From: Candidatus Peribacterales bacterium
GTDB taxonomy: Bacteria; Patescibacteriota; Gracilibacteria; Peribacterales; Peribacteraceae
NCBI GenBank assembly: GCA_021731345.1
Contig: JAKFXO010000030.1
Coordinates: forward strand, 1-31,778
DNA length: 31,778 nt
Direction: 5' to 3'
In this document: piece after piece, positions 17,711 to 31,770 of the stretch
Position numbering within the stretch: the stretch's first letter is position 1
Layout: each line of letters starts with the position of its first letter
Made by a program: the position numbers and the translations under genes
Notes under the pieces: model-generated
Seen by the model: only the letters and a program-made list of their open reading frames with translations
Databases searched by the model: none
Told to the model about the DNA's origin: nothing

Positions 17711-18370
17711 ATGAACCCTGGACGACTTATCGGCCTCACTGTTCTCTTCGCTGCTCTTACGGCCTGCGGAGGAAGCCTAACGCTGACCTACTCGGTGAGC
17801 TCCAACATTCCGAATACCGCAAAGTCTCTTGAAGTATTCCAGGCAGCCGAGCGTGTCATGACACGCAGGCTCCCTGCAGCAGACGTGAAAGATTCGCAGG
17901 TGAAAGTTGTACCAACTGGAAGCAGTGCGACGATGACAATCAAGGTGCAGAACACTGCTGCGGCAGCCACGGCAGAGCGCATTCTTGGTGAGCCGTTCAC
18001 ATTCGATATTCGCTTAGAGGGACCAAAACTCCCGGAGATGGGTCCAGACGAAATTAACTGGCTCCCAACTGGTGTCGATGGCTCTACCTTATTGTGGGTC
18101 GTTCCAATCGCGAACCCAGACACAAATGAAATCGGCGTCGAGCTTCAATTCAGCGAAGAGGGTCATAAGCTCCTCGGAGAAGCGTTTAAAGGCAACAAGG
18201 GCAAGCATGTCGGTATCTTCGTTCGTGATCTCCTCGTCTCAAAGATGACGATCGCCGCCGATACAGTCACTGACCATATTCTCATCAGCGGTATTCCTTC
18301 AGAACGCGTCGCGCAAATTTTTGCCGACGACGTGAATGTCGGACTACACGCAATTTTTACTGAGAAATAA
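17711..18370 (+). CDS. Putative lipoprotein consisting of a stand-alone SecD P1 periplasmic domain
   Basis: Lipobox LTA-C19. The C-terminal half aligns by eye with the P1 head of the adjacent SecD. Confidence 0.75.
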   Translation: MNPGRLIGLTVLFAALTACGGSLTLTYSVSSNIPNTAKSLEVFQAAERVMTRRLPAADVKDSQVKVVPTGSSATMTIKVQNTAAAATAERILGEPFTFDIRLEGPKLPEMGPDEINWLPTGVDGSTLLWVVPIANPDTNEIGVELQFSEEGHKLLGEAFKGNKGKHVGIFVRDLLVSKMTIAADTVTDHILISGIPSERVAQIFADDVNVGLHAIFTEK

Positions 18371-18385
18371 TCCCCATCCCCCATC

Positions 18386-20830
18386 ATGTCCTCTTCAGAA
18401 CAGCGTTCATCCTTCTGGCCAATCGTCACTGCAGTCGTAGTGGCTCTCTGTGTGATCATCGCGATCCCAGACCAGTACAAAACGTTCCTGCCAAGCTTCC
18501 TCAAGCCAGGTCTTCACCTCGGTCTTGACCTCGCAGGCGGCACCCAACTGGATTTCCGCATTTCAGAAGATGAGATCATCAGCCGCCGAGCAGAAATTGC
18601 CGCTGAGATCGATACACTGAAGAAGAACGGTGGAGAGAATCAGGCAATCGTCAGCAAGCAGGTAGAACTTCAGGCACTCGACGAGCAGCACGCCAACTTA
18701 GTGGAAGCCATTCGTGGCGTCCTTGAGCGCCGCGTGAACTCACTCGGAGTCAGCGAAGCAACCATCACTCCGTCATACTTTGGTCCAGAGAAACACCTTC
18801 TCGTAGAGTGCCCTGGTGTCATCGATGTGAACCGCTGTATCGCAACTGTTGGAAAAACGATTCAGCTCGAATTTAAGGAAGAATACACAGAAACCCCAGT
18901 CGGATACGAAGCTGGCATCCGCGCTCAGGCTGACAAAGTCTTTAAGGCCATCGCTACGGGTACAGGAAACTTGCAAGTCTACGGACAGGACCTCAGTAAC
19001 CAGCTCGGCGTTTCGTACTTCGATAGCCGCGAACTCTTCGTCTCACAACTTCCAAAAGGAATGGAAGTACTCGCAAACCGCACTCCAGAGGATCCAGTCA
19101 TCAAGAACGAAGCAAGCATTCAGACCGTTGGCCAAGACGAGCAGGGTCAGCAGCAAGTGCAAGAGATTAAAGGAATTTACATCACGAAAGTACTGACACC
19201 GAAGAAATCAGTCCCACGCCCGTTGTCTGATCCGCATGAGGCTTTCCAAGAAATTGCCAAGACAACGCCAAATTCTTCTACGGAGTCCAAGAGCGCAGTA
19301 CTTATCGACTCCGCTCCAAAGGAAATTCAGACCACGCTTCGCACGATGGCTATCGGTAGCCAGGAAACAGTCAGTATCAATGGCGAGCAGAGCGCTATTG
19401 TCTATCTCGCAGGACGCATCGATGGTAGCCAAGAGATGACCGCGAGCCACATCCTGATTCAGTACAAAGGTGCTGAACGTGCAGAGGCATCGGTTGTTCG
19501 TTCTCAGGCACAGGCTAAGAGTTACGCTGATGAACTGAAGAAGCGTCTTGATGGCGGTGCCAACTTCAGCGACATCGCACGCACAGATTCTGATGGCCCA
19601 TCAAAGGCTTCGGCAGGTTCTATCGGCGTTATCCGCCCAGGAGTCATGCCAGCTGCCTTTGAAACCGCAGCATTCGCGCTCAAGCAAGGTCAGATCAGTT
19701 CTGTCGTTGAGACTCCATTTGGTTATCACATCATTCGCGCTGACAAAGCAGTCGTCACGACTAGTGCAAAAGTCACGTACGACCTTCTTCGTTTGAAGAT
19801 GGACACGACAGCAGCAAAAGCTGTAGCTGACACAATTGAAAAAGGAGAAATCACGAGGAATGAAGACCAGGTCACTATTCGTGGTCTCTTCTTCTCTCTC
19901 GAGCCTACTGGCTGGAAAGACACAGAGCTCAATGGTCAGCGTTTCCGCACAGCAAGCGTCACAGTTGACCCAGTCAGCAACGTCCCTGTCGTCCAAATCC
20001 AGTTTGACGAGAAGGGCGGCAAACTTTTCCAGGAACTCACGAAGCGCAACATCGGTAAGAGCATCGCAATCTTCGTTGGTGGTGAACTCGTCTCTGCTCC
20101 TACGGTTCAAAATGAGATCGCTGGTGGCAATGCTGTCATCACGGGAAGCCGCAGCTTCGAGGAAGCTCGTACACTCGCTCAGGACCTCAACACCGGTGCA
20201 ATTCCTGCGCCAATTTACCTCTCAGGCCAGAGCACAGTCGAAGCAACGCTCGGCGCTACAGCACTGAATCAATCAATCTTTGCTGCGATGATCGGTTTTG
20301 CAGTTCTCTGCGTGATTCTTATCATTATTTATCGTGCACTCGGTGTTGTGGCAATTCTTGCACTCATGACATACGTCGTGCTTCTTATCGCAAGTACGAA
20401 ACTCCCGATTCTTTTGATCTCGAATCAGTACGTTGTCCTGACGCTTGCGGGTATCGCAGGCATCATCCTCAGCATGGGAATGGCTGTGGATGCAAACGTT
20501 CTTGCATTCGAGCGCATTAAAGAAGAGCTAGCAAAAGGAAAGACTCTCAAGACCGCTGTTGAAACTGGCTTTAAAAAGGCATGGCCAAGCGTTCGTGACG
20601 GTAACTTCTCTACGCTGATCACGTGTGCAATCTTGTTCAGTATTGGCACAAGCATCATTCGCGGATTTGCCGTGACGCTCAGCATTGGTATTTTTATCTC
20701 GCTCTTCACAGGAATCATCGTCTCTCGCTGGTTCTGCCGTCTCATTGCTTCGTCTCCTCTCGCCAATCGCCCAGAACTCTTCGGCGTGAAAGTCGACAAG
20801 CCAGTCGAGCCACAGACGCCAAGCGTGTAA
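18386..20830 (+). CDS. secD: Protein translocase subunit SecD with inserted parvulin (PpiC-type) PPIase domain(s)
   Basis: LHLGLDLAGGT, LERRVNSLGVSE, AIFVGGELVSAPTV, LNTGAIP, GMAVDANVLAFERIKEE, IRGFAVTL. The insertion contains ASHILI...NFSDIA...FETAAFAL...ETPFGYHIIR. Confidence 0.93.
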   Translation: MSSSEQRSSFWPIVTAVVVALCVIIAIPDQYKTFLPSFLKPGLHLGLDLAGGTQLDFRISEDEIISRRAEIAAEIDTLKKNGGENQAIVSKQVELQALDEQHANLVEAIRGVLERRVNSLGVSEATITPSYFGPEKHLLVECPGVIDVNRCIATVGKTIQLEFKEEYTETPVGYEAGIRAQADKVFKAIATGTGNLQVYGQDLSNQLGVSYFDSRELFVSQLPKGMEVLANRTPEDPVIKNEASIQTVGQDEQGQQQVQEIKGIYITKVLTPKKSVPRPLSDPHEAFQEIAKTTPNSSTESKSAVLIDSAPKEIQTTLRTMAIGSQETVSINGEQSAIVYLAGRIDGSQEMTASHILIQYKGAERAEASVVRSQAQAKSYADELKKRLDGGANFSDIARTDSDGPSKASAGSIGVIRPGVMPAAFETAAFALKQGQISSVVETPFGYHIIRADKAVVTTSAKVTYDLLRLKMDTTAAKAVADTIEKGEITRNEDQVTIRGLFFSLEPTGWKDTELNGQRFRTASVTVDPVSNVPVVQIQFDEKGGKLFQELTKRNIGKSIAIFVGGELVSAPTVQNEIAGGNAVITGSRSFEEARTLAQDLNTGAIPAPIYLSGQSTVEATLGATALNQSIFAAMIGFAVLCVILIIIYRALGVVAILALMTYVVLLIASTKLPILLISNQYVVLTLAGIAGIILSMGMAVDANVLAFERIKEELAKGKTLKTAVETGFKKAWPSVRDGNFSTLITCAILFSIGTSIIRGFAVTLSIGIFISLFTGIIVSRWFCRLIASSPLANRPELFGVKVDKPVEPQTPSV

Positions 20831-20839
20831 GCTTTGCTC

Positions 20840-21181
20840 ATGGACTCCATCTTCCTGAAGGACATCGAAGTCTGGACACGTATCGGCGTGCCAGAAGCCG
20901 AACGTGCAAAAGCGCAGCGCCTACTGGTCAGCATTGAGCTGTCCGGTTCCCTCAAAAACGTCGGTACGACTGACGACATCACGCAGGGGACTGACTACGC
21001 CGCAGTCACGGATGCAGTCATAAAGCTTGGAGCCACAGAACGAAAAACTATCGAACGTTTTGCAGAAGACATCGCAGGCCTCATTCTCAAAAAATTCACA
21101 CATGAGAGCGTGAAGGTCACTGTCTGCAAAAAGCCTGATCTACCTCTGGATGCCGCCTGCGTTACCATCATCCGCCCATAG
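20840..21181 (+). CDS. folB: Dihydroneopterin aldolase
   Basis: IFLKDIEV..RIGV...E, TDYAAV, TIERFAEDIA, VTVCKKP. ATG 20840 preferred over TTG 20834. Confidence 0.85.
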   Translation: MDSIFLKDIEVWTRIGVPEAERAKAQRLLVSIELSGSLKNVGTTDDITQGTDYAAVTDAVIKLGATERKTIERFAEDIAGLILKKFTHESVKVTVCKKPDLPLDAACVTIIRP

Positions 21182-21663
21182 AAACCGTCTATCTCGGCCT
21201 TGGCTCGAACATCAACCCTGAGAAAAACCTCAGAGCAACAGCGGTCTACCTGAAAAAATCTTTCAAAAACATCCGCTTCTCCCCTGTCTACCGTAGCAAG
21301 GCACAACATATTACAGATCAGGCTGATTTTTTGAATGCAGCAGCGATGCTTGAGACGAAACTCCCACCTGAAAAAGTCGCGGCGGAACTCAAGAAAATCG
21401 AGAAGAAACTGAAGAAGAATACGCCGGAGAAATTTGGTCCCCGCACCATCGACTTGGACCTTTTGCTCTACGGTCAGGAAATCTCACTCGATGACGAACT
21501 AACAATCCCCCACCTGAGGCTCCACACGCGTCGCTTCGTCCTCCAGCCGCTCATCGACCTTGGAGCTGGAGACGTTCTACACCCTGGTTTTGATGTGAAG
21601 CTGAAGACGTACTTGATGGAAACGAAGGATCAGCACTGCGAGAAGACGAAAATCACGCTATAA
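21178..21663 (+). CDS. folK: 2-amino-4-hydroxy-6-hydroxymethyldihydropteridine diphosphokinase (start non-canonical, see findings)
   Basis: Reading from ATA 21178: [11 protein letters not shown]...SPVYRS...DQADFLNAA...[14 protein letters not shown]...[16 protein letters not shown]. Confidence 0.85.
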
Positions 21664-21673
21664 TCACCCACTC

Positions 21674-22216
21674 ATGGAACCGCTGTTCAAATCTCTCCTT
21701 AAAAAGATCGGCGAAGACCCGAATCGTGAAGGCCTCAAGCGCACACCAAAGCGTATGGCCGAAGCGATGCAATTCCTGACGTCCGGTTATGACCAAGACC
21801 TGAAGAAAGTGGTCAATGGCGCTCTTTTTTCAGCGGATACCGACGGCATGATCATCGTGAAAGACATCGAGTGCTACTCACTCTGCGAGCATCACATGCT
21901 GCCGTTCACCGGCAAGGTGCACGTGGGCTACATTCCAGATGGCAAGATCATCGGACTCAGTAAAATCCCACGCATCGTGGATATGTTCGCACGCAGGCTC
22001 CAGGTGCAGGAACGTCTTGGCCAGCAAATTTGCGATGCTCTCCAAGACATTCTGAAGCCACAAGGTATCGGTGTCGTCATCGAAGCCAGTCACTTCTGCA
22101 TGATGATGCGTGGCGTCGAGAAACAGCATTCAATCGCCATCACGAGTCACGTCGCAGGCAGCTTTAAGCGTGACGCACGAACGAGGCAGGAGTTTATGGA
22201 TCTGATTCGCTCATAA
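21674..22216 (+). CDS. folE: GTP cyclohydrolase I
   Basis: [51 protein letters not shown]. Confidence 0.96.
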
Positions 22217-22265: not shown

Positions 22266-23006
22266 TTACGCTGCAAGGACTTTTTCCGCATCTGGCACCT
22301 GCTCGCCAAGTTTCTGGCGAATCGACGCGATCATAATGCTGTCATGAAGCTGATCGAAGCCTGCGTTCGTATCCCCTGCTTCATCGACCATCTTGTCACC
22401 ATCCATACCCTGAGCGTTGAGATACGTCGCAATGCTCTCCGATGACTCGACGTACTCGTGATACTCAGGCGTGTGATCCTTGAGCCCGCCCTCGGCCTTC
22501 ACGGCGCCATTCTCACGCAGAGCCCTGCGCGACAACTTGCTGATCTCGTCGATCTTTGGGTCTCCTGTCGGAGGTAGATCAACGTACTGATCACCAACCT
22601 CCTGCTCGCGATGCTTGGCCTCGTGCTTGGCAACGCGATCAGAGTCGAGCGCACGTCCTGCAATGCCAATCTTGCGTGTGTCATCGTGCTGCAGGCCTAC
22701 CACAGTGCCATCACTTGGCAGCACGTAGGCATCCGGCGCTGCAGCGATGTTTTTCATGCGCTCGTCATGCTCTTTGTCAGCGGCTTCAATGATTTCTTCT
22801 TCCATATCGGGTGCTACCGTTTGATCAGAGTTCTGAGGTTTAAAGAGTTCGGCAATTTTCTCACGCTGCACATCTTTCACCTCGCTGACTTTCAGTTTTT
22901 TTTGAGCCGCCTCCTCGAGTGCTAGCTCGCGAGTCTGGTCGAGCGTCCGCTTCACAATCTCTTTCGTGTCGAGAGCTGCCGATGATGTGGAGTTGATGCG
23001 ATCCAT
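22266..23006 (-). CDS. Hypothetical protein with HExxH motif (putative zincin)
   Basis: VAKHEAKHREQE followed about 30 aa later by LRENGA. Probable start is ATG 23006 (MDRINS). Confidence 0.7.
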   Translation of the reverse strand: MDRINSTSSAALDTKEIVKRTLDQTRELALEEAAQKKLKVSEVKDVQREKIAELFKPQNSDQTVAPDMEEEIIEAADKEHDERMKNIAAAPDAYVLPSDGTVVGLQHDDTRKIGIAGRALDSDRVAKHEAKHREQEVGDQYVDLPPTGDPKIDEISKLSRRALRENGAVKAEGGLKDHTPEYHEYVESSESIATYLNAQGMDGDKMVDEAGDTNAGFDQLHDSIMIASIRQKLGEQVPDAEKVLAA

Positions 23007-23118
23007 GTAAGCACCATTGTCGTCATATCCAGGTGAAGCGATACGAAAGAGAAAACCGAAGTGCCACGACACGTCGAAAACGAGTCTGGAAGCTACTTAC
23101 TCCGATGAGTCGAAGTGC

Positions 23119-24678
23119 CTACTTTTTAGACTGACCGTTCTTTCCGTTTTTTCCGACTGCTTGTTTCTCGAGCATTTTGTACACCGTAAGCTTCGTCATC
23201 GGTTGCTTATCTTGTCCGCTGTGTCCGTTTTTAGAATTGCGCGCGTCTTTTTTTACTTTACCCTTCCAAATTTTGTCGATATTCACACGGTACATATTGT
23301 GATATTTCTCAAGCTCATCAGGACCAGCCATCTTCAGAACGTCGAGCTCTGGAGCAAACATTTCTGAGTAACGGTCACGACGACGAATGAGCTTCGCTGA
23401 ACCGTCTGGATACAACATGATCATGCCGGGACGACGAATCGTATTGAAGTTACTCGACATCACCTGCGCGTACGCACCCACGTCCATAGCGGCCAAAAGG
23501 TCACCCTGACGCAGTTTTGGCATTTCGATGTTACGACGGATGATATCCCAACAGTCACAGGTGTTACCGGCGATGTTGACCGTATGAATACGGCGCTCGT
23601 TCATCTTGGACGCAGGCAAAATATCGTAGTGCACACCGGGCTGGATGAGCGCATCCGGAATAAAGTTGTATGTGGAACCATCCGCAATGACCATGCGTGA
23701 GTTCACACCCAAGCGCTTCTTACTAATAACTTTCATAAGGCCAATGCCTGCATTCATGACGATGCTCTTACCGGGCTCGAAGATAAGCTGGAGCGGCGGA
23801 ATGTTGTAGCGGTGCATGAGTCCCTGGAAGTACTTCGGGAAATCCTTCATACGCTCGATCGGGAATGCCTCCTCTTCTCCGATAGCAGCAGGGAAACCTC
23901 CGCCAAGTGACAAGCTCTGCACGCGGATGCCTTTGTCCAAGCAGCTGCGAATCAGCTTTGCGAACGTTCGCGCAGCCATCTTGAAGACCTTCGGGTTGTA
24001 GACGTAGCCACCCATGAAGTGGAAACCTTTGAAGTCGACATACGGGCTTTTGCGAGCCATATCCACGGCATGCTCGGCGTATTTAATGGGAATGCCGTAC
24101 TTGTTTCCTTTTGTGGAGTACTGACCAAACTCGATCATTGGGTTCACCCGAATAACAGTATCGATGTGCTTACGAAGTTTCTTCGCGGTCGCAGCAATGT
24201 GCTCGATTTCCTCAAGAGAGTCAGCCGTGATTGACTGCACACCGATCTTGATAGCGAAGTGAATGTCCTGCTCAGTCTTAAAGAGGTTCGTGAACGTCAG
24301 CTGCTTGGGCTTAAAGTCGGCAAGCAGACCAAGAATGAGCTCTCCAACGGACGAACAGTCCAATTCGAAGCCTTCCTCACGCACCATGCGGAGGATTTCA
24401 AGGTTACTGTTGCACTTCACGGCGTACTGCAGAGCGATGTCGGTACCAAAAACTTTTTTAAATCTCCTGAGACGTGAACGAATTTCACTATCAACAAGAA
24501 CATACAGTGCTGTGCCGTACTTCTCCACGATCTTATCAATCGGCACGCCTTCAATAAGCATCATTCCTTTTGTGTCCTGGCTCACGAAACGTTCCCAGCG
24601 CGGTCGCATATAGCGAGAGCTCACCTTGTGAGGTCTGACTTGCTTGAATTTGAAGTGGCCCGTTGGGCGCTTAGGCAT
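23119..24678 (-). CDS. Alanine-racemase-fold (group IV) PLP-dependent basic amino acid decarboxylase; candidate arginine decarboxylase
   Basis: YAVKCN, LDCSSVGE, IRVNP, KYG, LGGGF, EPGK, GNTCDCWD, DVGAY...SNFN. Located in a polyamine cluster. The fold call is strong; the substrate is inference. Confidence 0.85.
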   Translation of the reverse strand: MPKRPTGHFKFKQVRPHKVSSRYMRPRWERFVSQDTKGMMLIEGVPIDKIVEKYGTALYVLVDSEIRSRLRRFKKVFGTDIALQYAVKCNSNLEILRMVREEGFELDCSSVGELILGLLADFKPKQLTFTNLFKTEQDIHFAIKIGVQSITADSLEEIEHIAATAKKLRKHIDTVIRVNPMIEFGQYSTKGNKYGIPIKYAEHAVDMARKSPYVDFKGFHFMGGYVYNPKVFKMAARTFAKLIRSCLDKGIRVQSLSLGGGFPAAIGEEEAFPIERMKDFPKYFQGLMHRYNIPPLQLIFEPGKSIVMNAGIGLMKVISKKRLGVNSRMVIADGSTYNFIPDALIQPGVHYDILPASKMNERRIHTVNIAGNTCDCWDIIRRNIEMPKLRQGDLLAAMDVGAYAQVMSSNFNTIRRPGMIMLYPDGSAKLIRRRDRYSEMFAPELDVLKMAGPDELEKYHNMYRVNIDKIWKGKVKKDARNSKNGHSGQDKQPMTKLTVYKMLEKQAVGKNGKNGQSKK

Positions 24679-24703
24679 GGCGTTAAAATGCGGACAGAAC
24701 GCA

Positions 24704-24709
24704 ATTATA
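24704..24709 (-). promoter_or_regulatory. -10 box for the decarboxylase gene
   Basis: Perfect TATAAT on the minus strand, 25 nt upstream of ATG 24678. A 10-bp palindrome TCAGCGCTGA lies at 24711-24720. Confidence 0.55.
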
Positions 24710-24753
24710 GTCAGCGCTGATCACGTGTAAAGAAGAATTCTTCGTCACGATTT

Positions 24754-26085
24754 TTATCTGCCGATGAAAGTCTCGTGCAAAATATGAAGCGCGCGTTCGG
24801 TATCGTTCTCATCAACGACGAAAGTCATACTCACTCCGCCTGCTGCTTGCGAGATCATCTCAACCGGAATTTCGTGCTGACCAAGAACCGTAAAGATACG
24901 TCCTGCGACTCCTGCAGCGTTAATACTGCCTCCTACCATGCAGATGATGGCTTTGCCGGATACGACTTTCACTTCACCCAGTGAACTCAGATCATGAACA
25001 ATGCCATCCAAATTTTCACAGTCATCAATCGTGAGAGAGATACTCACAACAGACGTCGCAATGAGATCGATGCTCGTGCGGTATTTTTCAAAAATCTTGA
25101 AGACATTCGCCATGAGACCACTGCCATCAAAGAATTCGGGTGAGCGAACATGGATGACCGTGATCCCCTTTTTTCGAGAAAATGCTTCCACAGTCTTACT
25201 CTTACCGTGACGCTCTTCGAAGCTGCTCACGATGGTCGTGCCTTTGCCCTCCGGCTTAAACGTATTAAGAATCTGCACGGGCACACCGGCTTCCATGGCG
25301 GGAAGAATAGTCTTTGGATGCAGCACCTTCGCGCCGAAGTATGCGAGTTCACAGGCTTCTTCGAACGCAAGTTCGTGAACCACCTTAGCTTCTGGGACGA
25401 TACGAGGGTCAGTCGTCATGAAACCATCAACCTCTTTCCAAATTTGAATGGCCTCAGCCTTGAGCGCAGCGCCAACGATAGCTGCCGTGTAATCCGATCC
25501 TCCGCGTCCGAGTGTCACGATCTCACCTTTCTCGGTCTTACCGATAAATCCGGTCATGACCGGCACAGTTTTTAGTGCCGTGATCTTTTTCTTCATGAGC
25601 GCGAACGATGATGGAAGTGGCTCAGCGTCTCCAAAGACTGCATTCGTTATCATGCCAAGTTCCCAAGCTGGATATGCGCGAGATGGAACACCGATCTTTG
25701 CGAGTTGTCCTGCAACAATGGTCGATGACAGGCGCTCGCCGAATGACTGAAAGAGATCAAGCGACTTCTTCGTGAGCTTTCCTTTCTTTCGGCGCGTGAG
25801 TTTCATAAGTGCCTCAAGTTCCCCAAACTGTTTTGCACACAAAGAAGGAGAAAGTTTCAGATCCTGCAAAATGTCTGCGTGCCTTCCGTGCAAGCTCTGA
25901 AAGATGTCCGCGCCCCCGCCCTCCGCAGCAGCATGCGCCAAGCGAATGAGCGTATCGGTGACTCCGGATACGGCCGACACAACAACAACCGGCTTCCTCT
26001 TCTTATACATCTTCACGATAGCAGCGACTTCGGAGATCGCTTTCGCGCTTCCGACTGACGTGCCACCAAACTTCATAACGATCAT
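24754..26085 (-). CDS. lysC: Aspartate kinase with two ACT domains
   Basis: MKFGGTSVG, VVVSAVSGVTD, SFGERLSS, TLGRGGSDYTA, KEVDGFMTTDPRIVP, YFGAKVLHP, C-terminal ACT repeats. Confidence 0.95.
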   Translation of the reverse strand: MIVMKFGGTSVGSAKAISEVAAIVKMYKKRKPVVVVSAVSGVTDTLIRLAHAAAEGGGADIFQSLHGRHADILQDLKLSPSLCAKQFGELEALMKLTRRKKGKLTKKSLDLFQSFGERLSSTIVAGQLAKIGVPSRAYPAWELGMITNAVFGDAEPLPSSFALMKKKITALKTVPVMTGFIGKTEKGEIVTLGRGGSDYTAAIVGAALKAEAIQIWKEVDGFMTTDPRIVPEAKVVHELAFEEACELAYFGAKVLHPKTILPAMEAGVPVQILNTFKPEGKGTTIVSSFEERHGKSKTVEAFSRKKGITVIHVRSPEFFDGSGLMANVFKIFEKYRTSIDLIATSVVSISLTIDDCENLDGIVHDLSSLGEVKVVSGKAIICMVGGSINAAGVAGRIFTVLGQHEIPVEMISQAAGGVSMTFVVDENDTERALHILHETFIGR

Positions 26086-26188
26086 AGTACGAAGTAGTGT
26101 GCCGATACATGACGCGGATGCAAGAGCGTCCGAGAAAAATCATGAACGGATTTCATGTAGCCATGCAAGATTTCTGTATACTTTGCGC

Positions 26189-27271
26189 ATGAAAAACTCC
26201 CACGAAAAACGCCGCGTCGGCATCCTCGGAGCCACCGGCATGGTCGGTCAGCAATACATCTCGCTTCTTGAAGGTCATCCGTGGTTCACGGTCACGCACA
26301 TGGTCGCAAGTCCGTCCTCGGCAGGTAAGACCTATGCAGAGGCAGTAGAAGGACGCTGGCACATGAACGGTTCAGTGCCGAAGGACGTACAGAAGCTCGT
26401 CGTTCATACGGTCGATGACCTCAAGGCAGTCGCGAAGAACTGTGACTTCGTGTTCTCAGCGCTCGATTCTGACATCGCCAAAGAGTGGGAAGAGAAATAC
26501 GCAGCAGCAGGCATCCCCGTTGTCTCTAATGCATCGACACACCGCATGACGCCAGATGTTCCGATGATCATCCCTGAAGTGAACCCTGAGCATCTCGAGA
26601 TGATTACAATTCAGCAAAAGAACCGCGGATGGGACAAAGGCTTCATCGTCGTAAAGCCGAACTGCTCTATCCAGAGCTACGTTGCTCCCCTTGCGACCTT
26701 GCACAAGAAATTCAAGATCAAGAGCGTTGTCGTCACCACGATGCAGGCCATCTCTGGTGCTGGGCATCCGGGCGTCGCATCGCTCGATATTTTGGAGAAC
26801 GTCGTACCGCTCATTAAAGGAGAGGAGGAGAAGTCTGAATTAGAACCTCGCAAAATCTTCGGCTCGATCAAAGGAGATAAAATCGTGCATGACGAATCAT
26901 TCACGATTTCCGCACACTGCAACCGCGTTCCGACCATCGACGGTCACATGGCGTGCGTGTCATTTAGCTGTGAGAAGAAGCCAACAGAAAAAGAGATCCT
27001 CGCTGCATGGAAAGATTTTAAAGGCCCGCCACAAGAGCTAAGTCTCCCATTTGCGCCGGTGCAGGCCATTACGTACCTCACGGAACCAAACCGTCCGCAG
27101 CCTCGTATCGACAGAAATCGGGATAAAGGCATGACGGTGACAGTAGGAAGGCTGAGGGAAGACCCTGTGTTCCAGTGGAAATTCGTTGGACTCTCTCACA
27201 ATACGATCCGCGGAGCGGCAGGCGGCGGTATTCTCATCGCCGAATTGCTGAAAGCAAAGTCGTATGTATAA
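26189..27271 (+). CDS. asd: Aspartate-semialdehyde dehydrogenase (archaeal/fungal-like branch)
   Basis: GILGATGMVGQ, LEGHPWF, PNCS, TMQAISGAG, HCNRVP, HNTIRGAAGG. Start at ATG 26189, 6 nt after TATACT. Confidence 0.95.
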   Translation: MKNSHEKRRVGILGATGMVGQQYISLLEGHPWFTVTHMVASPSSAGKTYAEAVEGRWHMNGSVPKDVQKLVVHTVDDLKAVAKNCDFVFSALDSDIAKEWEEKYAAAGIPVVSNASTHRMTPDVPMIIPEVNPEHLEMITIQQKNRGWDKGFIVVKPNCSIQSYVAPLATLHKKFKIKSVVVTTMQAISGAGHPGVASLDILENVVPLIKGEEEKSELEPRKIFGSIKGDKIVHDESFTISAHCNRVPTIDGHMACVSFSCEKKPTEKEILAAWKDFKGPPQELSLPFAPVQAITYLTEPNRPQPRIDRNRDKGMTVTVGRLREDPVFQWKFVGLSHNTIRGAAGGGILIAELLKAKSYV

Positions 27272-27280
27272 TTTTCGCAT

Positions 27281-28513
27281 ATGACTAAAGGAACCATCCT
27301 CATCATCGGCGCCGGCGGAGTCGGCTCAGTTGCCGCACACAAGTGCGCTATGAACAAAGACGTCTTCACCAAGATTCACTTGGCGAGCCGCAGTCTGGCA
27401 AAACCAGACGCTATCAAGAAAGACATTAAGAAGCGCTGGGGAGTAAATATTACAACGCACAGCGTCGATGCCGATAAGACGAAACAGGTAATCGCTCTCA
27501 TTAAAAAAGTGAAACCGTACCTCGTGCTCAACCTTGCGTTGCCGTACCAGGATCTCACGATCATGGACGCGTGTCTGGCAACCAAGACGCACTACATGGA
27601 CACCGCCAACTACGAGCCAATCGACAAAGCTGAGTTTGAGTACAGCTGGCAGTGGGCATATAAGAAGAGGTTTAAGGATGCAGGAATTATGGCTGTGCTC
27701 GGCGCTGGATTTGACCCAGGTGTCACCAACGCATACTGCGCATTCCTGCTCAAGAAATATTTCGACACGGTAAAGCATGTCGACATCTTGGATGCCAACG
27801 CCGGTAACCACGGCAAAGCGTTCGCCACAAACTTCAACCCGGAGATCAACATCCGCGAGGTGACACAGGTCGTGAAGCACTGGAACAAGGGCAAGTGGGT
27901 GAAGACGCCTGCCATCCTCGATCAAACAAGCATCCACTTCGACTTCGATTATCCGCAAATCGGTCCAAAAGACAGCTACCTCCTCTACCATGAGGAGCTT
28001 GAGTCTCTTGCCAAGAACCTCCCAGGCCTTGAGCGCATCCGCTTCTGGATGACATTCTCCCAGAACTACATCACGCACCTGCGCGTCATGCAAAACATTG
28101 GCATCACCCGCATCGACGAAGTGGAATACGACGGTAAGAAGATCGTTCCGATCAAATTCTTGAAGGCCCTTCTTCCGAATCCAGCGTCACTTGCCACCAA
28201 GTACACGGGCAAGACAAACATCGGTTGTATCGTGACCGGAAAGAAAGACGACAAAGAGTTCACGAAGTACATCTACAACGTCTGTGACCACGCTGAGTGC
28301 TTCAAGGAAGTCGGCTCTCAGGCAATCTCGTACACCACAGGTGTGCCGGCCATGGCTGCGGCCATGATGCTGATGCAGGGCACATGGACGGGTAAGGGTG
28401 TATTTAACATCGAGCAGCTTGATCCTGAGCCTTTCTTGAACGTTGTGGCCAAGAACGGTCTGCCGTTCAAAGTCGTCGACCACGATCCTCTCCCCGATTC
28501 CCTCACTCCATGA
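27281..28513 (+). CDS. Carboxy(nor)spermidine dehydrogenase (CASDH; saccharopine dehydrogenase family)
   Basis: IIGAGGVG, LALPYQDLTIMDAC, YMDTANYEP, GAGFDPGVT, FATNFNPEINIRE, SQAISYTTGVPA. ATGA overlap with nspC. Confidence 0.92.
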   Translation: MTKGTILIIGAGGVGSVAAHKCAMNKDVFTKIHLASRSLAKPDAIKKDIKKRWGVNITTHSVDADKTKQVIALIKKVKPYLVLNLALPYQDLTIMDACLATKTHYMDTANYEPIDKAEFEYSWQWAYKKRFKDAGIMAVLGAGFDPGVTNAYCAFLLKKYFDTVKHVDILDANAGNHGKAFATNFNPEINIREVTQVVKHWNKGKWVKTPAILDQTSIHFDFDYPQIGPKDSYLLYHEELESLAKNLPGLERIRFWMTFSQNYITHLRVMQNIGITRIDEVEYDGKKIVPIKFLKALLPNPASLATKYTGKTNIGCIVTGKKDDKEFTKYIYNVCDHAECFKEVGSQAISYTTGVPAMAAAMMLMQGTWTGKGVFNIEQLDPEPFLNVVAKNGLPFKVVDHDPLPDSLTP

Positions 28514-29709
28514 GCACGGAGGAAACGTTCGAGCCTTCATGGGAACGCGACCGCGAAGGATTTTTCGCACAGCTCGACTACTCAAAGGTCACCACACCCG
28601 CGTACATCTTTCATGAAGGTGCGCTCGAGGAAAATTTGAAGATCCTTGCACATGTAAAGAAGGAGGCCAGCTGCACCATCCTCCTTGCGCTGAAGGGCTA
28701 CGGCACGTGGAAAACATTTCCGCTGGTGAAGAAGTATCTGGACGGTGTGTGCGCCAGCTCGGTGAACGAAGCGAAGCTCGGTCGTGAAGAATTCGGCAAG
28801 CAGGTCCATAGCTACGCACCAGTGTTCAGTGATCGTGATATCGACGAGCAGGTTCTCTACGCCGATCACATTGTCTTCAACTCGCCGACTCAGTGGATCA
28901 AATACCGCGACTACGTGAAAAAGAAAAATCCGAAGATTCATTGTGGCATCCGCATCAACCCCGAGTCCGCCGGTGCGGGAAACGACCTCTATAACCCCTG
29001 CGCCAAAGGCTCACGCATGGGAAGCACGCTGAAGGAATGTGAAAAACACCCCGGTATTCTGGAAGCCGCAGATGGACTGCACTTTCACGCCCTCTGCGAG
29101 CAAAGTGCGGATGATTTGGAAGAAGCCCTGAAACAGGTTGAGAAGAAGTTCGGCAAGTACCTGAAAGGCAAAAAGTGGATCAATTTCGGTGGTGGTCATC
29201 ACATCACACGCAAAGGATATGACACCAAGAAGCTCATCGCGCTCGTCCGTGACTTCCAAAAGAAGTACGAGACGAATGTCATACTAGAACCCGGTGAAGC
29301 CGTGGGTCTGAATGCAGGCGTACTCGTAGCAAGCGTGCTCGATATCATCGAGAACAACGGAAAAATCGCGATGCTGGATACAACCGCAGAAGCACACATG
29401 CCAGATGTCCTCGGCATGCCCTACAGGCCTTCAATCATCGGTACAGGAAAACCTGAGGAAAAGAAGTATGACTATATGATGGGTGGCATTACGTGTCTCT
29501 CCGGTGACTTTATCGGCAAACACTCGTTTGACCATGAACTGAAGCCCGGCGACAAAGTTGTGTTCCAAAACATGGCCATCTATACGACGGTGAAGAACAC
29601 GACGTTCAACGGCGTGCGACTTCCCGATATCATCATCATGGATCAGAACAACAAGATCGTGCACACCAAGAAGTTCGGCTACGAAGATTTCAAGAATCGG
29701 CTGTCGTAG
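28510..29709 (+). CDS. nspC: Carboxy(nor)spermidine decarboxylase
   Basis: TPAY, LLALKG, RINP, YNPC..GSRMG, GLHFHALCEQ, NFGGGHHIT, LEPGEA, HMPDVL.MPYRP, TCLSGD, YTTVKNTTFNG. Confidence 0.95.
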   Translation: MSTEETFEPSWERDREGFFAQLDYSKVTTPAYIFHEGALEENLKILAHVKKEASCTILLALKGYGTWKTFPLVKKYLDGVCASSVNEAKLGREEFGKQVHSYAPVFSDRDIDEQVLYADHIVFNSPTQWIKYRDYVKKKNPKIHCGIRINPESAGAGNDLYNPCAKGSRMGSTLKECEKHPGILEAADGLHFHALCEQSADDLEEALKQVEKKFGKYLKGKKWINFGGGHHITRKGYDTKKLIALVRDFQKKYETNVILEPGEAVGLNAGVLVASVLDIIENNGKIAMLDTTAEAHMPDVLGMPYRPSIIGTGKPEEKKYDYMMGGITCLSGDFIGKHSFDHELKPGDKVVFQNMAIYTTVKNTTFNGVRLPDIIIMDQNNKIVHTKKFGYEDFKNRLS

Positions 29710-29748
29710 TTCGTCGGTCTTTGTTACCGTACCTGCATCACTTTTCGC

Positions 29749-30621
29749 ATGGATCAAAACCTCGTCACTCTCGGCCTCGTCCAAATGTCGATGACAAGCG
29801 ACAAGGATGAAAATCTCAAAAAAGCTGTCGTCATGACGGAGGAAGCAGCAAATAAAGGCGCCAAGATCGTCATTCTTCCGGAGCTCTTTGCAGGTCCGTA
29901 CTTCTGCATTGTCCCAAAAAATACAGAGGCGCTAAAAATGGCAGAAAGCATCCCAGGTACTGTCAGCAGCGCACTTTCAGCGCTCGCAAAAAGACTGAAA
30001 ATTGTGCTGATTGGAGGATCAATCTATGAAGAAGCAGACGGAAAGAGGTACAACACCTCCTGCATCTTCGGACCCGACGGCAAAACGATCGGAACCTACA
30101 GAAAAGCGCATATCCCGCATGATCCGGGTTTCTATGAGCAGGACTACTTCGGCAGTGGCAATGAAGTCATCAAGGTACATGACACTCCGTTTGGCAAAAT
30201 CGCCGTCGGTATTTGCTATGACCAGTGGTTCCCAGAGTTCGCACGTCTCGCAACGCTGGCTGGAGCAGCGCTCATCGTGTATCCCACCGCCATTGGAGAT
30301 AATCCAACAGTCGCTCCGGCTGATCCGAAGGTGAAAGAGAACTGGGAACAGATGTGGCGGGCAGCGCAGGTTGGCCACAGCGCAAGCAACTCTGTCTACG
30401 TCGCTGCCGTGAACCGTGTTGGTGACGAAGGTGCGACGCACTTCTTTGGTGGCTCTTTCGTCTCAGACCCGAATGCGACGCTTCTTGTGAAGGGTGACGA
30501 TACTGAGAAGGTACTGATCGCTGAGATCGATATGTCGTATCCGAAAAAAGTACAAGAATCCTGGAGATTTTTACTCGAGCGCCGACCAGATTTGTACGGC
30601 GGTATTACCAAGACATCATGA
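29749..30621 (+). CDS. aguB: N-carbamoylputrescine amidohydrolase (carbon-nitrogen hydrolase)
   Basis: Glu-Lys-Cys triad in LPELF, YRKAHIP and ICYDQWFPE; YPTAIG; ATGA overlap with aguA. Confidence 0.88.
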   Translation: MDQNLVTLGLVQMSMTSDKDENLKKAVVMTEEAANKGAKIVILPELFAGPYFCIVPKNTEALKMAESIPGTVSSALSALAKRLKIVLIGGSIYEEADGKRYNTSCIFGPDGKTIGTYRKAHIPHDPGFYEQDYFGSGNEVIKVHDTPFGKIAVGICYDQWFPEFARLATLAGAALIVYPTAIGDNPTVAPADPKVKENWEQMWRAAQVGHSASNSVYVAAVNRVGDEGATHFFGGSFVSDPNATLLVKGDDTEKVLIAEIDMSYPKKVQESWRFLLERRPDLYGGITKTS

Positions 30622-31664
30622 CCAACACTGCAAAGCCGTCCGCTGAAGGTTTCCGTATGCCCGCAGAATGGGCTTTGCAGAGTGCCGTATGGCTCTCGTG
30701 GCCATACAATCTAGAAGAAACCTGGGAAGGACACATTGATGGCGCTGAAAAAGCATTCACAGAAATGATCGAGATCATGTCTCATCATCAGATCGTGCAT
30801 CTTTTGGTACCAAATGATGCAGTTCGTACGCGTACTCTCTCAAAAATCAAGAATTCAAAGGCCAATCTAAAAAATCTACAGCTACATATCGTAGAAACTG
30901 GAGACATTTGGATCCGCGACTACGGCCCAATCTTCATCACGAAGGATTCTCCAAAGCACGAGGTAGCTTTCACGAAGTGGATCTATAACGCCTACGGTAA
31001 CAAGTACGACGCACTGCTCGTCGGCAACGACGTTGCGGACAAGATCCCGCTAGATACATATCGCAGGTTCGACACTGGCATCGTGCTGGAAGGTGGCTCC
31101 ATCGACGTGAACGGTAGTGGCACGGTTCTCACAACCGAAAGCTGCCTCCTCTCCCCTGACCGCAACCCGAACATGACGAAGAAGCAGATTGAACAGGCGC
31201 TCAGTGACTACCTAGGTGCGAGCAACGTGCTCTGGCTTGGCGAAGGCATTGAAGGCGATGACACCACGGGCCACGTGGATGATCTCACACGCTTCGTCGG
31301 CCCTTCTACGGTCGTCACTGTGGTGGAGGAAGACCCAAGCGACGCTAACTACAAGCCGCTCCTTGAAAACGTGAAGCGCTTGAAGTCAATGAAAGACGAG
31401 CGTGGTACTCCTCTCACGGTCTTAGAGATTCCGATGCCTCAAAAATTTGTTGTCGACGGTCGCCGTATGGCCGCAACTCATGCAAACTTCCTCATCGCAA
31501 ATAACGTTGTGCTCGTGCCAGTGTACGCACAACCTTCGGATGACGTTGCACTCGATATCCTCAGCAAATGCTTCCCGGAACGTAAGGTCATCGGTATCGA
31601 TTGCCGTGAGCTGATCTGGGGCTACGGCTCCATCCACTGCGCTTCGCAGCAACAACCAGCCTAA
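30618..31664 (+). CDS. aguA: Agmatine deiminase
   Basis: FRMPAEW, WIRDYGP, EGGSIDVNG, DDTTGHVD, NFLIAN, GSIHCASQQQP. Confidence 0.95.
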   Translation: MTNTAKPSAEGFRMPAEWALQSAVWLSWPYNLEETWEGHIDGAEKAFTEMIEIMSHHQIVHLLVPNDAVRTRTLSKIKNSKANLKNLQLHIVETGDIWIRDYGPIFITKDSPKHEVAFTKWIYNAYGNKYDALLVGNDVADKIPLDTYRRFDTGIVLEGGSIDVNGSGTVLTTESCLLSPDRNPNMTKKQIEQALSDYLGASNVLWLGEGIEGDDTTGHVDDLTRFVGPSTVVTVVEEDPSDANYKPLLENVKRLKSMKDERGTPLTVLEIPMPQKFVVDGRRMAATHANFLIANNVVLVPVYAQPSDDVALDILSKCFPERKVIGIDCRELIWGYGSIHCASQQQPA

Positions 31665-31668
31665 CATT

Positions 31669-31770
31669 CGTGAGAGGAAACCTACGGTTTCCTCTCACGG
31701 ACTCTCCTTCCTCTAAACGGAGCGGCTCCAGCGCGGGAACCCGCGAGACCCGCGCTTCGCCGCGCTTTTT
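31669..31770. repeat. Palindromic element after aguA (14-bp perfect inverted repeat plus GC stem and T-run)
   Basis: CGTGAGAGGAAACC-TAC-GGTTTCCTCTCACG (31669-31699), then AGCGCGGG (31730-31737) / CCCGCGCT (31749-31756) and CGCGCTTTTT. Confidence 0.75.

Follow-up and report, generated by a model that had tools for sequence, protein, structure and literature searches.

Aspartate kinase and aspartate-semialdehyde dehydrogenase genes linked to a predicted spermidine pathway in Candidatus Peribacteria

Introduction

The enzymology closest to the system described here is known from the carboxyaminopropylagmatine (CAPA) pathway of Synechocystis (Slr0049/Sll0873), Bacteroides fragilis, Clostridium leptum, Streptococcus pneumoniae and Helicobacter pylori (PMC10599626, PMC13683441), in which a CAPA dehydrogenase (CAPADH) and a CAPA decarboxylase (CAPADC) build a polyamine from aspartate beta-semialdehyde (ASA) without S-adenosylmethionine (SAM). 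We analysed a related seven-gene cluster at the 3′ end of contig JAKFXO010000030.1 of a Candidatus Peribacterales bacterium (assembly GCA_021731345.1); the entire contig of 31.8 kb (31,778 bp) is called the window below. The cluster resembles the CAPA pathway in the signature residues of its dehydrogenase, the nspC-type gene directly downstream and the predicted use of ASA instead of SAM, and, like the S. pneumoniae-type variant, it includes genes similar to those of agmatine iminohydrolase (AIH) and N-carbamoylputrescine amidohydrolase (NCPAH). It departs from that pathway in having both ASA-making enzymes in the cluster, in a genome without the amino-acid branches that normally justify them, in ending with an iminohydrolase/amidohydrolase pair rather than the ureohydrolase APAUH, and in an upstream decarboxylase that is not of a known arginine decarboxylase (ADC) type.

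Three other systems invite comparison. The carboxyspermidine pathway of Agrobacterium tumefaciens, with carboxyspermidine dehydrogenase (CASDH) and decarboxylase (CASDC), and its norspermidine analogue in Vibrio (CANSDH/CANSDC) employ the same two enzyme families and ASA as aminopropyl donor; where CASDH and CANSDH have I/V, W/E and D, the window enzyme has N, F and E (PMC10599626), and its acceptor is likely agmatine, not putrescine. The agmatine-dependent homospermidine pathway of SpeY, a deoxyhypusine-synthase-like enzyme (PMC13625781), shares the agmatine entry, the decarboxylase, the AguA/AguB-type enzymes and the very decarboxylase/aguBA slot, which in the window is occupied by lysC-asd-CAPADH-CAPADC, so that spermidine rather than homospermidine is the expected product. 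In the ectABCD-ask cluster of Pseudomonas stutzeri, an aspartate kinase has likewise been recruited to a cluster for an ASA-built product, ectoine (PMC7995798). Ectoine producers, however, keep housekeeping aspartokinases and the Lys/Thr/Met branches and do not usually recruit asd, whereas in the window genome lysC and asd are the only copies and those branches were not found.

Results

Seven genes for a predicted route from arginine and aspartate to spermidine

Gene calls were based on an open reading frame (ORF) listing together with Pfam and NCBIfam profile scans. All seven contiguous genes, the two divergent arms and the ATGA coupling that an earlier note had read from the letters of the window were recovered, with only the start of asd corrected, to 26189:

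23119-24678, minus strand: pyridoxal phosphate (PLP) decarboxylase derived from diaminopimelate (DAP) decarboxylase, 519 aa, proposed ADC (PF02784 + PF00278)
24754-26085, minus strand: lysC, monofunctional aspartate kinase with C-terminal ACT domains, 443 aa (PF00696 + ACT; TIGR00657, 375 bits)
26189-27271, plus strand: asd, archaeal/fungal-type aspartate-semialdehyde dehydrogenase, 360 aa (TIGR00978, 419 bits; NF006416, 490 bits)
27281-28513, plus strand: CAPADH, annotated as CASDH or saccharopine dehydrogenase, 410 aa (PF03435 + PF16653; signature residues)
28510-29709, plus strand: nspC-type decarboxylase (CAPADC/CASDC), 399 aa (TIGR01047, 487 bits)
29749-30621, plus strand: AguB-like carbon-nitrogen hydrolase (N-carbamoyl-polyamine amidohydrolase), 290 aa (PF00795, 203 bits)
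30618-31664, plus strand: AguA-like guanidino-group iminohydrolase (agmatine/N1-aminopropylagmatine deiminase), 348 aa (PF04371, 379 bits)

The longest ORF of asd (25904-27271) overlaps lysC, and the actual start is the ATG at 26189 (MKNSHEKRRVGILGATG), where the conserved N-terminus begins. A sequence check placed the ATGA overlaps at 28510-28513, the start of nspC on the stop of the CAPADH gene, and at 30618-30621, the start of aguA on the stop of aguB. The same gene set recurs in several independent Peribacteria metagenome-assembled genomes (MAGs), so the arrangement is not a matter of chance. As the earlier note had supposed, the organism belongs to the candidate phyla radiation (CPR), as Candidatus Peribacteria; its genome (G000) amounts to 1.17 Mb in 141 contigs, with an estimated completeness of 87.8%.

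We consider it probable that the cluster forms a self-contained, SAM-independent module converting arginine and aspartate to spermidine in a Peribacteria cell without the Lys/Thr/Met branches. In the route that we infer, including what each enzyme does, in which sequence the steps run, what the first decarboxylase acts on and that ASA has no other fate, LysC and Asd would convert aspartate to ASA, for which the next enzyme is the only consumer found, and the DAP decarboxylase (DAPDC)-derived enzyme would convert arginine to agmatine. The CAPADH-type dehydrogenase would then join agmatine and ASA with NADPH to give CAPA, the nspC-type decarboxylase would remove CO2 to give N1-aminopropylagmatine, and the AguA-like iminohydrolase and AguB-like amidohydrolase would turn the guanidino end into an amine, yielding spermidine.

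lysC and asd follow the polyamine genes

The nearest structures to the window LysC are the aspartokinases of Arabidopsis, M. jannaschii and E. coli. The earlier note had proposed that lysC and asd exist solely to make polyamine, and the evidence sides with it: both genes are single-copy in G000, none of the dap, thr or met genes adjoins the cluster in the window, and a search for a complete Lys/Thr/Met pathway in the genome (87.8% complete; marker families only) did not find dapA, dapB, dapF, hom or thrC. Since one incomplete MAG proves little, relatives were surveyed for LysC, nspC, dapA and hom. In a set of 30 relatives, the five genomes of the family that have true LysC are exactly those with archaeal-type Asd and with true nspC, and the genes lie close together. 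In the order-level survey, an even sample of 151 Peribacterales genomes, LysC was found in nine and true nspC in eight. All eight nspC carriers have LysC, seven of them on the same contig and within ~4 kb, and LysC is missing from 142 of the 143 genomes without nspC; the sole genome with LysC and without nspC (G102) has dapA 1.8 kb from lysC. In this sample, aspartate kinase thus has polyamine genes as neighbours in eight genomes and a lysine-pathway gene in one, and is otherwise absent. Neither dapA nor hom was found in the other block-carrying genomes (84-97% complete MAGs).

A minority of Peribacteria have a different, lower-scoring LysC, accompanied by a bacterial-type asd and a LysA-like gene in the Peribacteria MAG binchicken_co203_530 (L111) and by dapA nearby in G102 (contig G102:C38), which suggests that a few Peribacteria have a genuine lysine pathway.

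Gene order varies among the carriers. In the window type lysC is divergent from asd, a Baikal MAG has a co-directional six-gene operon (lysC, asd, dehydrogenase, decarboxylase, aguB, aguA), and L015/L118 and the more distant Peregrinibacterium L035 have a co-directional four-gene operon (lysC, asd, CAPADH, CAPADC). The linkage of lysC-asd with CAPADH/CAPADC, which the earlier note had left to a survey of relatives, is conserved across Peribacteria MAGs and survives rearrangement.

If ASA had a second fate, being turned into homoserine and threonine by non-orthologous enzymes or into diaminobutyrate, lysC and asd would be shared rather than dedicated. The search for marker families only in a genome 87.8% complete leaves some room for such a fate, and two DPANN genomes with a similar neighbourhood have dapA, one of them also hom, so that linkage alone is no proof of exclusivity. 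Another essential use, however, predicts that lysC and asd be kept without the CAPA genes, and they are so kept only in G102, which has dapA; with dapA and hom missing from eight of eight carriers and LysC from 142 of 143 non-carriers, we judge a second fate to be quite improbable. The evidence strongly supports the view that lysC and asd work for polyamine synthesis alone.

The dehydrogenase carries the signature of an agmatine-dependent enzyme

The window dehydrogenase matches the structures 4INA, 8DEB, 4RL6 and 8H4Z with E values of 1e-155 to 1e-161, of which 8DEB (B. fragilis) and 4RL6 (S. pneumoniae) are verified CAPADHs. The CAPADH signature consists of N104, F113 and E228 with conserved E106 and H227 in Synechocystis numbering (N105, E107 and E229 in the B. 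fragilis enzyme), and that of true CASDH of I113, W126 and D241 in A. tumefaciens (PMC10599626, PMC13683441). The window enzyme carries N110, E112, F119 and H237-E238, thus the complete CAPADH signature, with N, F and E in place of the I, W and D of true CASDH, and the N/E/F and H-E residues are identical in 69 of 69 sampled relatives at at least 57% identity. Xi et al. defined the clade experimentally as CAPADH, taking at least 47% identity to the Synechocystis enzyme as their criterion for the family, and reported a kcat/Km of 2.6e5 for agmatine versus 51 for putrescine, a ~5000-fold preference (PMC10599626). The enzymes of the clade from Bacteroides, C. leptum, H. pylori and S. pneumoniae also prefer agmatine (PMC10599626, PMC13683441). 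Because the window dehydrogenase has the CAPADH signature, agmatine, not putrescine, is its likely acceptor.

The nspC product scores 487 bits against the TIGR01047 equivalog, above the cut-off of 409; CAPADC and CASDC are not separable by sequence because CAPADC is promiscuous (PMC10599626). The likely order of steps is read from the dehydrogenase, from arginine to agmatine, CAPA, N1-aminopropylagmatine and, through AguA/AguB, spermidine. An iminohydrolase variant of the CAPA route was put forward in PMC10599626, and PMC13625781 regards it as likely in Bacteroides, Akkermansia and C. leptum. AdoMet_dc/SpeD and spermidine synthase/SpeE were not found in profile searches of the genomes, and the route is therefore SAM-independent, as had been suggested for this cluster.

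The earlier note had called the classical order established, in which AguA and AguB make putrescine, CASDH joins putrescine to ASA and the resulting carboxyspermidine loses CO2 to become spermidine; lysC and asd would still be dedicated. This order would suit the presence of translationally coupled AguA and AguB homologues and the occurrence of the window type of AguA (clade A, below) in loci without the block, and the CAPADH clade does have a measurable, poor activity on putrescine, with a CAPADC that decarboxylates carboxyspermidine (PMC10599626). It fits badly, however, with N110, F119 and E238 in place of I, W and D (PMC10599626, PMC13683441), with a kcat/Km that in characterised clade members is over three orders of magnitude higher for agmatine than for putrescine, and with AguA and AguB scores that do not reach the agmatine deiminase and N-carbamoylputrescine amidase equivalog cut-offs. 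We regard the classical order as unlikely.

The finishing enzymes

Although the Pfam assignments of AguA and AguB (PF04371 and PF00795) are solid, the two proteins stay below the equivalog cut-offs, with 277 bits versus 382 for AguA (TIGR03380) and 265 versus 410 for AguB (TIGR03381). These scores fit an altered substrate but are no proof of it; AguA and AguB probably act last, on N1-aminopropylagmatine. The AguA tree splits into two deep clades, of which clade B comprises SpeY loci only, and clade A every CAPA-block locus, that of the window included, plus some SpeY loci, a hint that module and finishing enzymes go together.

A putative arginine decarboxylase derived from DAP decarboxylase

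The best model for the first decarboxylase is lysA (TIGR01048) at 281 bits, below the cut-off of 297.9, and its best PDB matches are DAPDCs (1e-47), followed by ornithine decarboxylases (ODCs, 1e-18); the SpeA model gives only 25 bits. The protein falls outside the known ADC families, namely alanine racemase (AR)-fold SpeA, the aspartate aminotransferase (AAT)-fold enzymes, pyruvoyl PdaD and the SpeD-derived and ODC-derived types. With LysA and its neofunctionalised relatives, the D-ornithine/D-lysine decarboxylase DokD, BtrK and FslC, it shares the fold, the PLP lysine, the Gly loop and the EPG and GAY motifs, at ~30-35% identity to DAPDCs.

In TmDAPDC, the distal carboxylate of the substrate is bound by R249 and R285 and its distal amine by E315, with H179 stacked on PLP and S182 bound to the phosphate (PMC8277567). 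Four replacements at these sites are invariant in the family of the window protein: EPGK for EPGR (R249), ..IPD.. for ..IRPALY, i.e. P(D) at R285, CDCWD for CESxD (E315 to D, the ODC/ADC state), and FHF[M/F]-GGY for HxHIGSQ (H179 and S182). Both distal-carboxylate arginines, the E315 of a meso-DAP decarboxylase and the stacking His are thus replaced, and the genes lie in a polyamine rather than a lysine context. The family gave 595 matches, the best 120 of the 595 being at least 63% identical, and after clustering at 50% no more than two outliers (55% and 37%) stand between the family and generic LysA at 30-35%; it is apparently a tight clade restricted to Peribacteria. JGI annotates its members as DAP decarboxylase.

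The decarboxylase adjoins speY-like and/or aguBA genes in ~30 loci, and occurs in many genomes without lysC, asd and nspC, there always with aguBA. Besides nspC, it is the only Orn/Arg/DAP-fold decarboxylase in the genomes searched, in which pyruvoyl, AAT-fold and SpeD-type ADCs and a second AR-fold decarboxylase were not found. Bacterial SpeY couples two agmatines and hence needs an ADC (Li et al., PMC13625781). Context and residues together make it rather likely that the predicted activity of this protein is that of an arginine decarboxylase derived from DAPDC, of which we found no description in the open-access literature. For the step from arginine to agmatine assumed in the earlier note, the cluster has a candidate decarboxylase gene; the enzyme, for which that note gave no specific name, is a diverged DAPDC relative and not a known ADC, so the step itself is one that we infer.

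The annotation as DAP decarboxylase, the DAPDCs among the best model and PDB matches, and lysC-asd-lysA neighbourhoods in Woesearchaeota and other lineages could also be read as signs of a lysine-pathway remnant, in which a genuine LysA would make lysine from scavenged meso-DAP and the polyamine genes would be mere neighbours. We considered and rejected this explanation as highly improbable: both distal-carboxylate arginines are replaced and CE is changed to CD throughout the family (PMC8277567), dapA, dapB and dapF were not found in G000, lysC tracks nspC and not the decarboxylase, and the decarboxylase occurs in many Peribacteria without lysC/asd, always beside speY-like and/or aguBA genes.

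In one Peribacteria MAG (L005/L119; CALRAD010000013 and CALRAD010000027), the decarboxylase gene and asd-CAPADH-CAPADC-aguB-aguA are found on separate contigs, with 9 kb of unrelated flank, so physical linkage between the decarboxylase and the other genes is not constant.

Exchange with a SpeY-like gene at a conserved locus

Between the decarboxylase and aguB-aguA, most Peribacteria loci have a SpeY-like gene and six have lysC-asd-CAPADH-CAPADC; one (L002/G005) carries both. On the decarboxylase tree, block and SpeY loci are interleaved, with the block locus L006 sister to the SpeY locus L003, and the starred branches force at least five changes. The lysC-asd-CAPADH-CAPADC block behaves as a swappable cassette that replaces the SpeY-like (homospermidine) gene at a conserved locus. 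A deoxyhypusine synthase (DHS)-like gene (PF01916) lies directly upstream of the decarboxylase in the same direction in 25 of 34 loci. Such a gene was found in 70 of the 151 Peribacterales genomes, only one of the eight block carriers among them, and was not found in the window genome.

The DHS-like genes of Peribacterales fall into three PF01916 score classes, at ~300, ~135-149 and ~95-108 bits (examples: G121:C25:16762-17646, G076:C2:56431-57339 and G010:C11:286095-287006). Some genomes hold two classes, and only the ~95-108-bit class was seen beside the decarboxylase. Two copies contain in-frame stops, one TAA in G084 and two TGA in G082.

The module beyond Peribacteria

The neighbourhoods of the closest CAPADH homologues (80 loci) were surveyed for lysC and asd within 9 kb. 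One or both were found in Peribacteria, the Saccharibacterium L121, the Nanoarchaeia MAG L134 and the archaeon L151, and in Candidatus Iainarchaeum andersonii (L150) CAPADH-CAPADC, aguA-aguB and lysC-asd all lie within 9 kb; the lysC match in a Brevinematales MAG (L175) is weak only. Neither gene was present within this distance in ~65 other loci, mostly from Paenibacillus, Saccharibacillus, Desulfovibrionaceae and Deferribacterales, with some Verrucomicrobiota, Bacteroidota and others. The genomes of L150, L121 and L035 lack both hom and dapA. The Nanoarchaeia genome (L134) has dapA, and L151 has both, located between lysC and asd. Lineages with small genomes thus show the lysC/asd linkage repeatedly, though not all of them show exclusivity.

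Quick, within-sample trees placed Peregrinibacteria Asd inside a CPR + DPANN clade (support 100*), apart from Acidobacteriota and Gemmatimonadota. In the CAPADH tree, a CPR clade (support 100*) unites L035 and Saccharibacteria with Peribacteria. Peribacteria CAPADC, in contrast, is sister to that of Nanoarchaeia (93), and L035 and Saccharibacteria have a different CAPADC type. Horizontal acquisition of the genes as a block, which the earlier note had proposed to examine by gene trees, is not borne out in the form of a single transfer from one donor: we rejected this on account of the incongruence of the CAPADC and CAPADH groupings, and the trees speak for a mosaic history.

Since all data come from MAGs and, for several of the four block genes, the nearest relatives outside CPR are those of DPANN archaea, the cluster might be thought to stem from another organism and to have been mis-assigned to a CPR bin. 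Such a binning or assembly artefact is barely credible, because the cluster shares a single 31.8-kb contig with SecDF, folate and other housekeeping genes and its synteny is seen again in Peribacteria MAGs that different studies assembled independently, where the contigs reach 82 kb.

Outside CPR, the LysC proteins closest to the CPR type among the matches listed, at 50-53% identity, are those of L036 and L038, labelled Methanosarcinales, and of L037 (Woesearchaeota), each in a neighbourhood lysA-like ... lysC-asd. The labels of L036 and L038 look doubtful, given an unusual residue composition in the Asd tree.

Putative regulatory sites and neighbouring genes

Two non-coding features lie within the cluster:

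24704-24731, minus strand: promoter-like site TTTACA-16-TATAAT between lysC and the decarboxylase gene (11/12 match; consensus scan, a hint only)
26086-26188, no strand: divergent intergenic region between lysC and asd, 103 bp, presumed bidirectional promoter (sequence reading)

The equivalent divergent gap is ~118 bp in relatives. Promoter and terminator scans of the region gave site counts not above those of shuffled sequence. A perfect 11-bp inverted repeat (GAGAGGAAACC ... GGTTTCCTCTC) at 31672-31697, 8 bp past the aguA stop, is likely a terminator hairpin, though it has no T-run after it.

Upstream of the cluster, an 814-aa SecD/SecF-type protein (18386-20830, plus strand) carries a PPIC-type parvulin (Rotamase) domain, residues ~347-453, inserted in its periplasmic P1 region; just upstream of its gene, 17711-18370 encodes a stand-alone 219-aa P1-head-like protein. 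A folB-folK-folE (GTP cyclohydrolase I) run at 20834-22216 (plus strand) adjoins the cluster, and the HPPK match of its folK ORF, from 21331, begins at profile position 47 of 116, the N-terminal third being without an ordinary in-frame start codon. The 268-aa ORF directly downstream of the decarboxylase gene (22266-23072, minus strand) has no Pfam match at E <= 0.01.

Discussion

Several points weigh against the route from arginine and aspartate to spermidine proposed here. G000 is 87.8% complete, all genomes are MAGs, and the evidence is comparative throughout. The CAPADH-type dehydrogenase is the only ASA consumer found by searches that did not extend to diaminobutyrate aminotransferase or non-orthologous homoserine dehydrogenases. 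In the putative ADC family of Peribacteria the PLP-stacking His is changed to Met or Phe, an uncommon state for a functional enzyme with this fold, and DAPDCs act on a D-stereocentre, as opposed to the L-arginine proposed as substrate. The sub-cut-off scores of AguA and AguB bear on their substrate assignment. Finally, CAPADHs keep a weak activity on putrescine and CAPADC also decarboxylates carboxyspermidine (PMC10599626), and part of the flux may follow the classical order.

While the enzymology of the CAPA pathway is known, four features of the present system appear to be new: both ASA-forming enzymes embedded in the cluster, with no other copies in the cell, in genomes that lack the amino-acid branches; a module recurring in CPR and DPANN; the alternation of a cassette with SpeY; and a putative ADC derived from DAPDC. 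No prior description of any of the four, nor of lysC/asd linked to CASDH or of polyamine synthesis in CPR or DPANN, was found in the open-access literature. On a wider reading, which we put at about even chances, ultra-small episymbionts of both domains, namely Peribacteria, other Peregrinibacteria and Saccharibacteria of the CPR and Iainarchaeota and Nanoarchaeia of DPANN, package LysC/Asd with CAPA genes, in several cases solely for spermidine, and the Peribacteria module is fed by an unrecognised DAPDC-derived ADC family and exchanged with a SpeY module at one locus.

CPR and DPANN organisms are generally regarded as host-dependent, with almost all of their biosynthesis lost. Keeping or re-acquiring LysC/Asd only for spermidine, in a lineage without the lysine, threonine and methionine pathways, would identify polyamine self-sufficiency as a trait under selection in episymbionts and would be a clean natural case of central-metabolism enzymes re-purposed for a single end product. 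The seven-gene cassette from arginine and aspartate to spermidine should work in any host without SAM, and DAP decarboxylase becomes a candidate new evolutionary origin of arginine decarboxylase. For annotation, the finding carries the warning that the "lysC / asd / lysA" trio of this cluster would be mis-scored as partial lysine biosynthesis in CPR reconstructions. If the wider reading is true, the triamine would not be obtainable from the hosts of these organisms, and the choice between spermidine and homospermidine would be under repeated selection.

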